DNA from: a virus
Taxonomy: Duplodnaviria > Heunggongvirae > Uroviricota > Caudoviricetes
Length of the DNA: 38,798 bases
Direction: 5' to 3' (one strand)
Virus record (IMG/VR): IMGVR_UViG_2703718804_000009
Under the pieces are notes generated by a model. That model searched no databases, was not told the DNA's origin, and worked only from the letters and a program-made list of their open reading frames with translations. The position numbers and the translations under genes were made by a program. Numbering within the stretch: position 1 is the stretch's first letter; every line of letters begins with the position of its first letter. Shown here piece by piece: positions 13,250 to 25,338 of the stretch.

Positions 13250-13935
13250 ATAACCAGTATTTACAGTTTGTGCGTGAGCAGCTCATTATCGCCACCGCTG
13301 ATTTGAGTGGGGCAACAAAAGGTCAGCTTGAAGCCTGGCAGGAGAATGCCATGTTCGATACAGGGCGTTACAGGCGAAAAAAAATCCGGTACCGCGATGA
13401 AGTGACTGGAAAAATGATAACGCGGGATAATCCACCAATCCCGGGAAAACAATCACTGGCGAATGGCTCATCAATTGCCCTGGTCAGCCCGGTTGAGTTT
13501 TCGACATCATCATGGCGGCGGGCTTTGCTGTCTCTTGAAGAGCATCATAAAGCCTGGTTGTTGTGGTGTTACGGCGAGAGTATTTGTTGGGAATATCAGA
13601 TCGCGATAACACAGTGGGCGTGGAATGAATTTAATACTCAATCAGGTACCAGAAAAATTGCAGGGAAAACGCAGGAACGCCTGAAAAAATTAATCTGGCT
13701 GGCGGCGCAGGCAGTAAAAGCAGAACTTTTTGGTGGGGAAGGTTATGAATACCAGGAGCTGGCATTACTGGCGGGAGTGACAACTAAAAACTGGTCCAAA
13801 ACATTTACTCGTCACTGGGTTGCAATGAAACACATTTTTCAACGACTGGATAGTGAGGCTTTATTGTTTGTAATGAGAACACGTTCAAAACAAAAGGCGG
13901 CATTTTCAAAGCAAAGTGTTGCAAAAGTAGATTGA
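13246..13935 (+). CDS. late-gene antiterminator Q-like protein
   Basis: ATGA overlap with the rusA stop; immediately upstream of a candidate late promoter/terminator, the tRNAs and the lysis cassette. Confidence 0.6.
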   Translation: MNNQYLQFVREQLIIATADLSGATKGQLEAWQENAMFDTGRYRRKKIRYRDEVTGKMITRDNPPIPGKQSLANGSSIALVSPVEFSTSSWRRALLSLEEHHKAWLLWCYGESICWEYQIAITQWAWNEFNTQSGTRKIAGKTQERLKKLIWLAAQAVKAELFGGEGYEYQELALLAGVTTKNWSKTFTRHWVAMKHIFQRLDSEALLFVMRTRSKQKAAFSKQSVAKVD

Positions 13936-13947
13936 AAGGCATATATT
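13919..13947 (+). promoter_or_regulatory. candidate late promoter pR' (TTGCAA-17-TATATT)
   Basis: Hexamers read directly; overlaps the end of the Q-like gene; a terminator follows about 55 nt downstream. Confidence 0.4.
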
Positions 13948-14001
13948 TCATGCAAATCTGATATTTTGCCGATTTTGTACGTGATGGCAAAAGCAAACAA
14001 A

Positions 14002-14025
14002 ACCCGCCCACAAGCGGGTTTTTTT
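14002..14025 (+). terminator. candidate tR' intrinsic terminator
   Basis: ACCCGC...GCGGGT hairpin followed by T7. Confidence 0.6.
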
Positions 14026-14106
14026 GTGCCACTTATCTCGGATAGAAATGGTGAATGCGCTGGTGGAGGAGCTAAGGGTGATTTTTAACCAGGTGATTTT
14101 TGAATG

Positions 14107-14135
14107 CTTGCAACATTGATTTCGTAACGTTATTA
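14107..14135 (+). promoter_or_regulatory. candidate sigma70 promoter for the tRNA cluster (TTGCAA-17-TATTAT)
   Basis: Near-consensus hexamers with 17-bp spacing; predicted start site about 1-2 nt before tRNA 1. Confidence 0.5.
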
Positions 14136-14143
14136 TCCTGCGC

Positions 14144-14219
14144 CGGCCCTTTAGCTCAGTGGTGAGAGCGAGCGACTCATAATCGCCAGGTCGCTGGTTC
14201 AAATCCAGCAAGGGCCACC
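14144..14219 (+). tRNA. tRNA with CAT anticodon, most similar to tRNA-Ile2 (lysidine, AUA-decoding; ileX/ileZ-like); tRNA-Met not excluded
   Basis: Hand-folded cloverleaf: 7-bp acceptor stem, GCTC/GAGC D-stem, CTCATAA anticodon loop, perfect T-arm (GCTGG TTCAAAT CCAGC), CCA end. Confidence 0.7.
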
Positions 14220-14220
14220 A

Positions 14221-14297
14221 ACCGCCACTAGCTCATCAGGAAAGAGCGTCAACCCTTTAAGTTGAGTGTGCGAGGTTCGAGTCCCCGGTGGCGGTCC
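14221..14297 (+). tRNA. tRNA-like gene, atypical; predicted anticodon UUU (Lys) with C at position 33 and one T-stem mismatch; possible pseudo-tRNA
   Basis: Hand-folded: 7-bp acceptor stem (CCGCCAC/GTGGCGG), D-stem GCTC/GAGC, anticodon stem TCAAC/GTTGA with loop CCTTTAA, TTCGAGT T-loop, CCA end. Confidence 0.4.
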
Positions 14298-14299
14298 AG

Positions 14300-14375
<76 letters not shown>

Positions 14376-14378
14376 ATA

Positions 14379-14454
<76 letters not shown>

Positions 14455-14661
14455 GTTAGAGTCTTTCAGTCTGCGATGATGGGAAATCCCGGAGTGACTG
14501 AAAGACGTTTAAGTTATGAATGATCGCCTTTTTTTGCAAAATTGCTGTGCAGAAATACTAACCTTCGGGCAGGCGATCATTCATAAGCACTCTGCTTTTA
14601 TTCCGATTAACTGTGGGTGGTTTGTTGGATAGAGTGCTTTCCTTTCTGTATATATCGTTTC

Positions 14662-14685
14662 GCCCGCTTTTGCGGGTTTTTCTTT
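14662..14685 (+). terminator. intrinsic terminator upstream of the holin gene
   Basis: CCCGC-TTTT-GCGGG hairpin followed by TTTTT. Confidence 0.6.
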
Positions 14686-14746
14686 TCAAATCCCTTTCAT
14701 TTCTCAGTGTAAAACTACGCCATCCGTTATTTGCGGAGGTGAGGCT

Positions 14747-14962
14747 ATGAAATCCATGGACAAAATTTCAACGGGCATTGCCTATGGCACCTCCGCAGGC
14801 AGTGCTGGCTACTGGTTTTTACAGTGGCTTGATCAGGTCAGTCCGTCACAGTGGGCTGCGATTGGTGTGCTGGGGAGTCTGGTTCTGGGCTTCCTGACTT
14901 ATCTGACAAATCTGTACTTCAAAATCAGAGAAGACAAGCGTAAGGCTGCACGGGGAGAGTAA
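14747..14962 (+). CDS. class II holin / pinholin (phage 21 S21-like, 71 aa) with dual-start motif MKSM
   Basis: [30 protein letters not shown]... matches S21 as recalled; GGAGGTGAGG SD. Confidence 0.85.
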
Positions 14963-14966
14963 TTCA

Positions 14967-15318
14967 ATGACTCAAAACTATGAACTGATTGTGAAAGGGA
15001 TCCGCAATTTTGAGAATAAAGTTACGGTAACTTTAGCGTTACGGGACAAAAAAACGCTTTGACGGTGAAATTTTTGACCTGGACATCTCGCTGGACCGTG
15101 TTGAAGGTGCCGCGCTGGAGTTTTATGAGGCAGCAGCCAGAAGGAGCATCAGACAGGTCTTCCTGGATGTTGCTGCCGGGTTATGTGAAGGGGATGAGCA
15201 GTCGCCGGAAAAGCGCCCCGTAATTTTAGATGCGCAGAATGTGTGGATAACCTACAAAGGAAAGCTACCAGGAAGAATTACTGGTTCTCTGAAGACTCCT
15301 CCGGAATCACAACCTTAA
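14967..15318 (+). pseudogene. YdfR-like (DUF1327) gene interrupted by a +1 frameshift in an A7 tract (15048-15054)
   Basis: ATG at 14967 reads MTQNYELIVKGIRNFENKVTVTLALRDKKTL then stops at 15060-15062; the +1 frame continues DGEIFDLDISLDRVEGAALEFYEAAARR... to a TAA at 15316-15318. Removing one A restores a single ORF of about 116 aa. The holin / ydfR / lysozyme order matches Qin (from memory). Confidence 0.55.
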
Positions 15319-15381
15319 GTCACTGACCGGAACAGATAAACCTGTCCGTGGGCAGAAACCGATAAATCCTGATAAATATCC

Positions 15382-15915
15382 ATGAACGCAAAAATCAGAT
15401 ACGGCCTGTCGGCTGCCGTTCTGACACTGATTGCCGTCGGTGCGCCCGCGCCTGATATTCTCGACCAGTTTCTGGATGAAAAAGAGGGTAACCACACAAC
15501 GGCATACCGCGATGGGTCCGGCATCTGGACCATCTGTCGGGGTGCCACGATGGTGGATGGAAAACCCGTTTTTCCCGGTATGAAACTGTCGAAGGAAAAA
15601 TGCGACCAGGTCAACGCCATTGAGCGTGATAAGGCGCTGGCATGGGTGGAGCGCAATATTAAAGTACCACTGACCGAACCACAAAAAGCGGGTATCGCGT
15701 CATTTTGTCCCTATAACATTGGCCCCGGTAAGTGTTTTCCGTCGACGTTTTATAAGCGGCTGAATGCCGGTGATCGTAAGGGCGCATGCGAGGCGATTCG
15801 CTGGTGGATAAAAGATGGTGGGCGCGATTGCCGCATACGTTCAAATAACTGCTATGGACAGGTTATTCGTCGTGACCAGGAAAGCGCATTAGCCTGTTGG
15901 GGGATAGATCAGTGA
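15382..15915 (+). CDS. SAR endolysin (phage 21 R21-like lysozyme)
   Basis: 177 aa; weakly hydrophobic Gly/Ala-rich N-terminal signal-anchor-release segment; position after the pinholin. Confidence 0.8.
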
Positions 15916-16379
15916 GCAGAGTCGCCGCGATTATTTATGCTCTGGTTATCTGCATCATCGTCTGCCTGTCGTGGGCGGTCAATCATTACCGTGATAACGC
16001 CATCGCCTACAAAGAACAGCGTGATAAAAAAGTCAGTGAGCTGAAGCTGGCGATCGCCACCATCGCTGACATGCAGCAGCGTCAGCGTGATGTTGCTGCG
16101 CTCGATGCAAAGTACTCGAGAGAATTAGCCAATGCGCAAGCTGAAAATGAAACTCTGCGCGCTGATGTTGCCGCTGGCCGTAAGCGCCTGCGGGTCAATG
16201 CCAGTTGCTCCGCAGCCGTGCGTGAAGCCACCGGACCCACCAGCGTGGATAATGCAACCATCCCCCGACTGGCAGACACCGCTGAACGGGATTATTTCAC
16301 CCTCAGAGACCGATTGATGACGATGCAGATGCAACTGGAAGGGGCGCAGGAATATATCCGCACTCAGTGCATTAAGTAG
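15897..16379 (+). CDS. Rz i-spanin
   Basis: N-terminal TM segment followed by a coiled-coil-like region; overlaps the endolysin stop; start is TTG at 15897 or GTG at 15912. Confidence 0.75.
16132..16317 (+). CDS. Rz1 o-spanin lipoprotein, embedded in the +1 frame of Rz
   Basis: 61 aa; lipobox LAVSAC; proline-rich mature region; entirely inside Rz. Confidence 0.8.
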
Positions 16380-23945: not shown

Positions 23946-24650
23946 ATGTCCTCTAATTTTGAGCGTTCGCAACTGACGAAAATTATGATTTCGTCTGCAC
24001 CGGTAACAGCAGAAACCCTGGATTCTGCCAGCTATCTTGGCCTGAGCTGTACAATCAAAGAGGTGCAGTTTACCGCAGGACAAAAGCAGGATATTGATGT
24101 CACCACGCTGTGTTCTGTTGAGCAGGAAAATATTAACGGTCTTGGTGCCGCGTCAGAGATTTCCATGTCAGGCAACTTTTACCTCAATGCTGCCCAGAAC
24201 GCGTTGCGCAGTGCCTATGACAATGACACCACGTATGGCTTTAAAGTTATTTTTCCGTCAGGAAACGGATTTACCTTTATGGCAGAGGTGCGTCAGCATA
24301 CCTGGTCTGCAGGAACCAATGGTGTTGTGGCTGCAACGTTTTCCCTGCGCCTGAAAGGTAAACCTGTGCTGGCGACAGAGCCGCTGAAAGTGAAGGTCGA
24401 TTTAAACAGCACGCTGCAGGTTTCTGCCGGAGCGAAACTCGAAATGGTGGTTGAGGCTGCCGGTGGTGTGCCGCCTTATTCTTATGTCTGGAAGAAAGGT
24501 AGTTCTCCTGTTTCCGGACAGACGGCGGCAACGTTCAGTAAGGCATTGGCAGTATCCGGTGATGCGGGCGCATATACCTGCGAGATTTCTGATTCAGCAA
24601 GCCCGGTTAACAAAGTGACCTCCACTTCCTGCACTGTAACCGTCAGTTAA
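23946..24650 (+). CDS. major tail protein with C-terminal Ig-like domain
   Basis: 234 aa; position before the G/GT chaperone pair; C-terminus is Ser/Thr/Val-rich and Ig-like. Confidence 0.8.
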   Translation: MSSNFERSQLTKIMISSAPVTAETLDSASYLGLSCTIKEVQFTAGQKQDIDVTTLCSVEQENINGLGAASEISMSGNFYLNAAQNALRSAYDNDTTYGFKVIFPSGNGFTFMAEVRQHTWSAGTNGVVAATFSLRLKGKPVLATEPLKVKVDLNSTLQVSAGAKLEMVVEAAGGVPPYSYVWKKGSSPVSGQTAATFSKALAVSGDAGAYTCEISDSASPVNKVTSTSCTVTVS

Positions 24651-24664
24651 TGAGGATGGGTGTG

Positions 24665-25036
24665 ATGACTAAAAATATCCGTAATCTGGCACTGGCAACG
24701 ATGTCGGGGTTTCGCCATAAAACTGTTGATGTGCCTGAATGGGAAGGGGCAACGGTTGTATTACGGGAACCTTCTGCAGAAGCCTGGTTGCGCTGGCAGG
24801 AGATCGTTAAAGCAAAAGATGATGAGACACCGTTATCCGTTGCGGAGCGCGCCCGCCGAAATCTGGAGGCAGATGTTGAACTGTTCATTGATGTTCTGTG
24901 TGATACCGGACTGCAACCTGTATTTTCAGAGGATGATCGTGAACAGGTGATTGCCGTGTATGGCCCGGTGCATGCGCGGCTTCTTCGGCAGTCTCTGGAA
25001 CTGATCAGTGATGCCGGCGAGGTTAAAAAAAAGTAG
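24665..25036 (+). CDS. tail assembly chaperone G
   Basis: Track ORF 24650..25036; the ATG at 24665 has a GAGGA SD; ends at the slippery heptamer. Confidence 0.7.
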   Translation: MTKNIRNLALATMSGFRHKTVDVPEWEGATVVLREPSAEAWLRWQEIVKAKDDETPLSVAERARRNLEADVELFIDVLCDTGLQPVFSEDDREQVIAVYGPVHARLLRQSLELISDAGEVKKK

Positions 25037-25338
25037 CGCTTCCGGGGATGCGTTTTCTGATGATGCTGGCACTCAGGATGGGGCGCACATTGTCAGAGTT
25101 ACGCCGGGAAATGTCCGCATCAGAAATTATGATGTGGGCAGAATTTGACAGGTTCAGCCCGCTGGGGGACGAACGGGCTGATATCCGGGCTGCCCAGATT
25201 GTTTCAGCTGTTTACGGCGCGCAGGGGGTCAAAGTGCCACTGAATGATGCGCTTCTTCAGTGGGAGAAGGAGCAGACAGAAGGCACCTCAGATCCATTTG
25301 CTGAGATTGAGAAGGCATTATTTGTTGCAGCTCGATGA
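24665..25338 (+). CDS. tail assembly chaperone GT, predicted -1 programmed frameshift product (slip at A_AAA_AAG, 25027-25033)
   Basis: The -1 frame is open from 25027 to the stop at 25336-25338 (track ORF 25048..25338 covers it); conserved G/GT arrangement upstream of the tape measure gene. Confidence 0.55.

Follow-up and report, generated by a model that had tools for sequence, protein, structure and literature searches.

A gene that is broken at a homopolymer raises the question of whether the break belongs to the organism or to the sequence record. This question is posed by the ydfR locus of the IMG/VR virus record IMGVR_UViG_2703718804_000009, in which a run of seven adenines interrupts the reading frame. 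The extra base could be an error of sequencing or assembly, a mutation that has inactivated the gene, or a device by which its expression is switched or recoded. The window, that is, the whole stretch of 38,798 nucleotides that was analyzed, is a lambdoid prophage with HK97-like head genes and lambda-like tail genes. Its closest isolated or induced phages, e.g., vB_EcoS-689R5, are ~96% identical over 20 kb. The evidence assembled below makes it highly probable that the seventh adenine is genuine and that it has abolished the function of ydfR, a small moron-like accessory gene that an HK97-like lambdoid Escherichia coli prophage carries in the lysis cassette of its late operon.

Anatomy of the interrupted gene

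The gene order of the region is Q, four tRNAs, holin, ydfR, lysozyme, Rz (with an embedded ORF), HNH endonuclease, and terminase, and the succession of holin, ydfR, and endolysin is common to all 13 of the RefSeq loci that were fetched. In the preliminary description of this DNA, the gene flanked by holin and endolysin had been assigned as YdfR-like (DUF1327), and profile searches confirm this assignment for the gene (PF07041, E 1.4e-42) and for both of its neighbors. Directly 5′ of ydfR lies a class II holin of the phage-21 type (14747–14962, plus strand; PF04971, E 1.4e-35), and directly 3′ of it lies an endolysin, a lysozyme with a hydrophobic N-terminal segment (15382–15915, plus strand; PF00959, E 1.4e-24).

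The 5′ fragment of ydfR (14967–15062, plus strand) begins with an ATG five bases past the holin stop, with the Shine–Dalgarno sequence GGGGAGAG just 5′ of it, and extends over 31 codons to a TGA at 15060–15062. Its frame-0 translation is MTQNYELIVKGIRNFENKVTVTLALRDKKTL, followed by the stop. The seven adenines occupy positions 15048–15054 (plus strand) in the sequence of the window. Intact alleles have six adenines at this site of +1 insertion, encoding Lys29–Lys30, and A6 is the longest homopolymer of the gene, in which the only runs of five or more are A6 and T5. From 15055, the +1 frame reads RFDGEIFDLDISLDRVEG...KTPPESQP and remains open for 87 codons up to a TAA at 15316–15318 (3′ part, 15055–15318, plus strand). 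A separate gene with its own start was considered for the 3′ part and ruled out, because inspection of the +1 frame reveals no ATG, GTG, or TTG before 15241. The translation of the two frames thus agrees with the frameshift at A7 described earlier, with the stop at the end of the first frame and the +1 frame open to 15318.

Removal of one A joins the two parts into a continuous ORF of 116 aa, the length that had been estimated before. The repaired protein matches PF07041 (DUF1327) with 144.3 bits over profile positions 1–92 of 93, the gathering cut-off of this Pfam family being 25 bits, and also matches PHROG 406 and 2091 with E about 1e-67. Such a score lies well outside what chance would give. 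The 31-aa fragment alone matches the same Pfam profile above the gathering cut-off (E 1.9e-11, 44.5 bits). A functional DUF1327 member would be encoded in an uninterrupted frame; in the window, the frame breaks at A7 and stops at 15060–15062. Comparison with intact homologues identifies a twin in strain 190693 (WP_001545374.1, locus L003), an A6 gene that is the same as that of the window except for one A in the run.

The neighboring genes display several features of their own. The N-terminus of the holin, MKSMDK (14747–14758), contains two Met codons three codons apart, presumably the dual-start (antiholin/holin) arrangement of phage-21 S. Public databases contain holin–YdfR fusions of 173–187 aa (PF04971 plus PF07041; P0016, P0032, P0040, and others), in which the holin stop is lost. 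Such fusions either are true alleles with read-through or result from indel errors in draft assemblies. The Rz-type spanin gene (15912–16379, plus strand; PF03245, E 1.3e-46) is annotated by PGAP as “lysis protein” and harbors an ORF in another frame (16132–16317, plus strand). The start of its product can be read as a lipoprotein signal, making this ORF a possible candidate for Rz1.

The four tRNA genes (CAT, Lys-TTT, Thr-TGT, and Gly-TCC; 14145–14454, plus strand) follow the Q antiterminator gene and precede the lysis cassette. The late operon to which ydfR belongs starts here. The first of them is called tRNA-Met (CAT) by ARAGORN, while PGAP annotates the identical gene as tRNA-Ile (CAU read as Ile after lysidine modification). 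Just 3′ of Q, sub-threshold Rfam matches to isrK, isrJ, and leader-peptide-like models (13944–14028; 22–25 bits) may correspond to a short pR′-tR′ late leader transcript.

Distribution and origin of the A7 allele

Homopolymers are classic sites of indel errors, and the preliminary description had listed a sequencing error among the possible causes of the frameshift, in which case the true phage would carry A6 and an intact ydfR. The frequency of the run lengths was determined with a 71-nt query centered on the run, a segment carried by 3294 complete E. coli records. The exact A7 71-mer occurs in 22 of these, and 10 further, clonal OkiPb records have A7 together with one SNP, so that A7 is present in 32 records from many studies, about 1% of the E. 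coli copies. Between identical 32-nt flanks, the run is A6 in 1381 records, A7 in 22, and A5 in two; no A8 was found with these flanks among the complete E. coli records. IMG/VR contigs comprise at least 120 with A6 and three with A7, and neither A5 nor A8 was found there. A6 thus accounts for ~98% of the exact-flank alleles, and it is the only form in the 21 records of isolated or induced phages that have the segment, a sample too small to infer anything on plaque formation. The reciprocal A5 (−1) allele is present in two chicken isolates (NZ_AP038817.1, 1782889–1782957; NZ_AP038823.1, 1765208–1765276), and a 91-aa database protein, P0166 (...LRDKNALTVKFLTW...), is the out-of-frame product expected from it.

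The rarity of A7 and the uniform A6 of the phage records are what a miscalled base would produce, but the manner in which A7 is distributed is not. The records that carry it were contributed by many laboratories and derive from human, pig, calf, and poultry hosts. The haplotype of the window, including A7, recurs without a difference over 401 queried nt in QA-1986 630 and in three calf/farm records (33F4, 32F4, and 33E), and with one mismatch in six records of other studies (AR_0089, S51, FDN-4, VTB96937v, GPEC172, and GPEC102). The allele tracks haplotype and clone, being found in six 042-type genomes, three 729_* poultry genomes, three calf/farm genomes, and ten OkiPb isolates. Miscalls of the homopolymer at random would not co-segregate with these haplotypes and clonal groups, as A7 does, but would be scattered among them. 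Furthermore, A7 is present in E. coli 042, the genome of which was sequenced with dye terminators (Sanger) at 8x and finished. With 22 + 10 E. coli records and three IMG/VR contigs, linkage to haplotype, and the presence of A7 in 042, a sequencing or assembly error in the window is very unlikely. The suggestion that the gene is a genuine pseudogene fares better, and PGAP already annotates the locus as “YdfR family protein, frameshifted” (pseudo) in 12 of the 12 A7 loci fetched.

The origin of the allele was addressed by comparing 481 nt that cover the holin together with the 5′ portion of ydfR, with the run removed. A7 is found on at least four prophage backgrounds with mutual differences of 47–79 of the 481 nt. 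These backgrounds differ in their upstream genes, which are tRNAs, a NanS-p-type esterase, or a tolA-like gene, and in the class of the ydfR tail (116 or 104 aa). Three of the four are matched perfectly across the 481 nt by an A6 locus (L046, L057, and L032/L049). The nearest A6 locus to the window is 1 SNP away over this distance, and ydfR itself has its exact A6 twin in L003, the locus of strain 190693. These sequences are most simply explained by repeated +1 slippage of replication at the longest homopolymer of the gene. Alternatively, A7 may have been spread between prophages by small-patch recombination. All A7 backgrounds share an identical segment of at least 167 nt, reaching from position −110 to position +57 relative to the run, and this shared core fits equally well with repeated mutation and with a single mutation that was later spread by recombination.

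One adenine was inserted into the A6 tract at Lys29–Lys30, most likely by slippage during replication. The occurrence of the +1 event on several backgrounds at ~1–2% is what would be expected of a somewhat mutable homopolymer whose gene is under weak selection.

A more elaborate proposal, also put forward in the preliminary description, is that the A tract serves as a contingency locus, in which reversible A6/A7 slippage phase-varies ydfR at high frequency. Such on/off switching would agree with the same site being affected on at least four backgrounds, and with the existence of both +1 (A7, 22 records) and −1 (A5, two records; protein P0166) alleles. However, the tract has only 6–7 nt, A6 dominates over A7 and A5 at 1381:22:2 with no A8 found, and, given the shared core of −110 to +57, A7 may have been spread by recombination instead of arising repeatedly. 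A contingency locus is expected to have a long tract of multiple lengths and to differ in length within clonal sets. Neither was observed, and A7 is uniform within all three clonal sets, of 3 (poultry), 3 (calf/farm), and 10 (OkiPb) genomes. Phase variation of ydfR by this tract is therefore hardly credible.

Probable loss of the YdfR protein and its consequences

YdfR proteins share a conserved core of ~75 residues, MTQ.YEL.VKG.RNFENKV.VT.AL.DK.RFDGEIF...LEFYEAAAR, which is followed by mosaic tails, such that the proteins range from 103 to >180 aa. Among loci L004–L136, at least five unrelated C-terminal tails were distinguished (103, 104, 114/116, about 176–183, and >240 aa), with a core–tail recombination junction near GLCEGDE. 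The family has 63 cluster representatives among 1.84 billion proteins and is nearly confined to prophages of Escherichia and Shigella. A search of the literature found nothing on ydfR together with holin, and a single passing mention of DUF1327.

The AF2 model of the protein has β-strands at residues 5–14, 18–27, and 36–43, a helix at 50–71, and a disordered tail. The 31-aa fragment consists of the first two predicted strands, followed by “TL” and the stop. Thus, the A7 allele is translated for 31 codons only, up to the loop that joins predicted strands 2 and 3, and, on the basis of the alignment and the model, the product would be devoid of the third strand and the conserved helix, i.e., most of the ~75-residue core. 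The 31-aa product is almost certainly inactive, because the break removes the invariant residues L50, Y53, E54, and A57, which reside, like the third strand and the helix, in the lost part. In the K-12 protein, residues 1–72 suffice for binding to RNase E's catalytic domain, and YdfR co-purifies with RNA (PMC13232886).

Further changes are found in the OkiPb A7 lineage (L136, NZ_AP042480.1), which differs from the window by D37A, D43G, and P101L, that is, by three nonsynonymous and no synonymous substitutions. D43G falls in a nearly invariant DR motif. These substitutions suggest relaxed constraint and decay after the frameshift, small as their number is.

The lysis cassette should work without ydfR because holin, endolysin, and Rz are intact, and ydfR would accordingly be dispensable for lysis. 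The classical lysis cassettes of lambda and phage 21 are not known to contain ydfR. A polar effect of the premature stop on the endolysin gene would, by analogy to lambda biology, be small because late transcription is Q-antiterminated.

The picture that emerges is of a dispensable prophage accessory gene that is repeatedly inactivated at its longest homopolymer, a finding of little biological weight. For annotation, it means that the locus is to be described as a frameshifted YdfR-family pseudogene and not as two small ORFs. It also means that the loss of ydfR is tolerated in lambdoid prophages that otherwise look complete. Given the link to RNase E binding, such natural ydfR nulls could provide ready-made controls for studies of late-transcript stability and lysis timing.

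Possible rescue of the frame and comparison with known systems

A frameshift in a homopolymer can also be a site of recoding. A7 would then be a leaky or programmed site, at which a +1 ribosomal slip or an RNA polymerase dropping one A yields an attenuated and possibly RF2-responsive YdfR. Two ribosomal routes can be envisaged: a slip on AAA-AAA-A, which would restore the wild-type sequence, and a slip on CUU-UGA-C, which would produce ...KKTL-DGE.... The second route is suggested by the end of the truncated frame, CTT TGA C (15057–15063, plus strand), from which the +1 frame continues as GAC GGT GAA into the 3′ frame of ydfR. In prfB, which encodes RF2, the critical element of +1 frameshifting is the shifty stop CUU UGA, followed by C as the fourth base (PMC13245932).

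The resemblance to prfB is confined to this element. The prfB site, AGG GGG UAU CUU UGA C, and that of the window share CUU UGA C in the exact register that restores the frame. In contrast to prfB, in which a Shine–Dalgarno-like stimulator is spaced 3 nt from the shifty stop, the window has no such sequence at this spacing. The sequence 5′ of CTT is GGGACAAAAAAACG, in which the end of the only G-rich element, GGGA, lies 10 nt away from CUU, and ACG takes the place of UAU or UCU as the spacer codon. Moreover, the motif is a by-product of the extra A, which turns the codons CGC TTT GAC into ACG CUU UGA C, and it arises in the ~1–2% of mutant alleles only and is not conserved. The CUU UGA C of the window is therefore regarded as a chance look-alike of prfB, at which, judging from the sequence, at most a trace of read-through and no programmed event would occur.

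A frameshift programmed by an RNA signal was likewise rejected. When positions 15040–15140 were folded and compared with shuffled sequences, the downstream structure was not significant (z −0.36), and an Rfam E-value scan of 13900–15500 found no family over ydfR, the only matches being the four tRNAs and the sub-threshold leader-like ones upstream.

On the A7 run, tRNA-Lys could re-pair perfectly after a +1 slip. The codons AAA AAA ACG at the frameshift site are decoded by the phage-borne tRNA-Lys(UUU) and tRNA-Thr(UGU), a match that is probably a coincidence. In 14 of the 14 A7 alleles that have their 3′ end on the contig, nothing interrupts the downstream +1 frame ahead of the normal stop. 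This is expected if the frame is used, and equally expected if the mutations are recent. As for slippage of RNA polymerase, A/T runs of about 9 or more are required for it to be efficient in E. coli. The ydfR run, with 7 nt, falls below the length associated with transcriptional slippage (e.g., Thermus dnaX, Shigella mxiE, and IS elements).

The allele frequencies also speak against recoding, as a conserved recoding site is absent from the ~98% of alleles with an in-frame A6, as well as from all 21 phage records, which are in frame. So does the OkiPb lineage, with nonsynonymous changes only. In view of these points, a recoding function of A7 is quite improbable. The same low probability applies to A7 as a low-output form of ydfR, in which a few per cent of ribosomes would pass via CUU UGA C or the tRNA-Lys slip and the level of YdfR, a candidate RNase E-binding protein, might respond to RF2 during late expression. 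Were it true, it would explain the persistence of A7 on several backgrounds with an intact downstream frame. For the preferred reading, a loss-of-function allele, any residual full-length protein would stem only from unprogrammed, low-level events, namely a polymerase dropping one A or a slip on AAA-AAA-A or CUU-UGA-C.

Programmed frameshifting on A_AAA_AAG, the canonical −1 slippery heptamer, is conserved in the G/GT genes of tailed phages. In the window, an ORF in the position of the tail-assembly chaperone G (24650–25036) ends in GTT AAA AAA AAG TAG (25022–25036), and the ORF at 25048–25338 is in the −1 frame. With G and T assigned by position, the genuine programmed G/GT frameshift of the phage seems to be located here. 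The ydfR site and that of lambdoid G/GT are both slippery sites of the homopolymer type. However, the former needs a shift of +1 and not −1, does not exist in the majority of alleles, and breaks up a conserved domain.

Among known YdfR proteins, that of the K-12 Qin prophage (P76160, PF07041) is a small cytosolic protein, and the copy of the window shares its N-terminal core. There are three differences between the two. The copy of the window is frameshifted after codon 30, it has another mosaic C-terminal tail (116-aa class, as opposed to 103 aa), and its allele encodes KK in the A6 tract, whereas K-12 has KE and no tract.

The closest likeness is to pseudogenes that are already flagged as frameshifted in RefSeq, NP447_RS14855 (NZ_CP101920.1) and EC042_RS07115 (E. 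coli 042), which have the same lesion in the same codons, with A7 in place of A6. The 042-type copies are unlike that of the window in their 104-aa tail and in having a NanS-p esterase, instead of tRNAs, upstream. In contrast, NP447_RS14855, from QA-1986 630, is 100% identical to the copy of the window over 401 nt, without any difference. The lesion of the window is thus an already known one, and the gene that carries it is an ordinary allele of ydfR.
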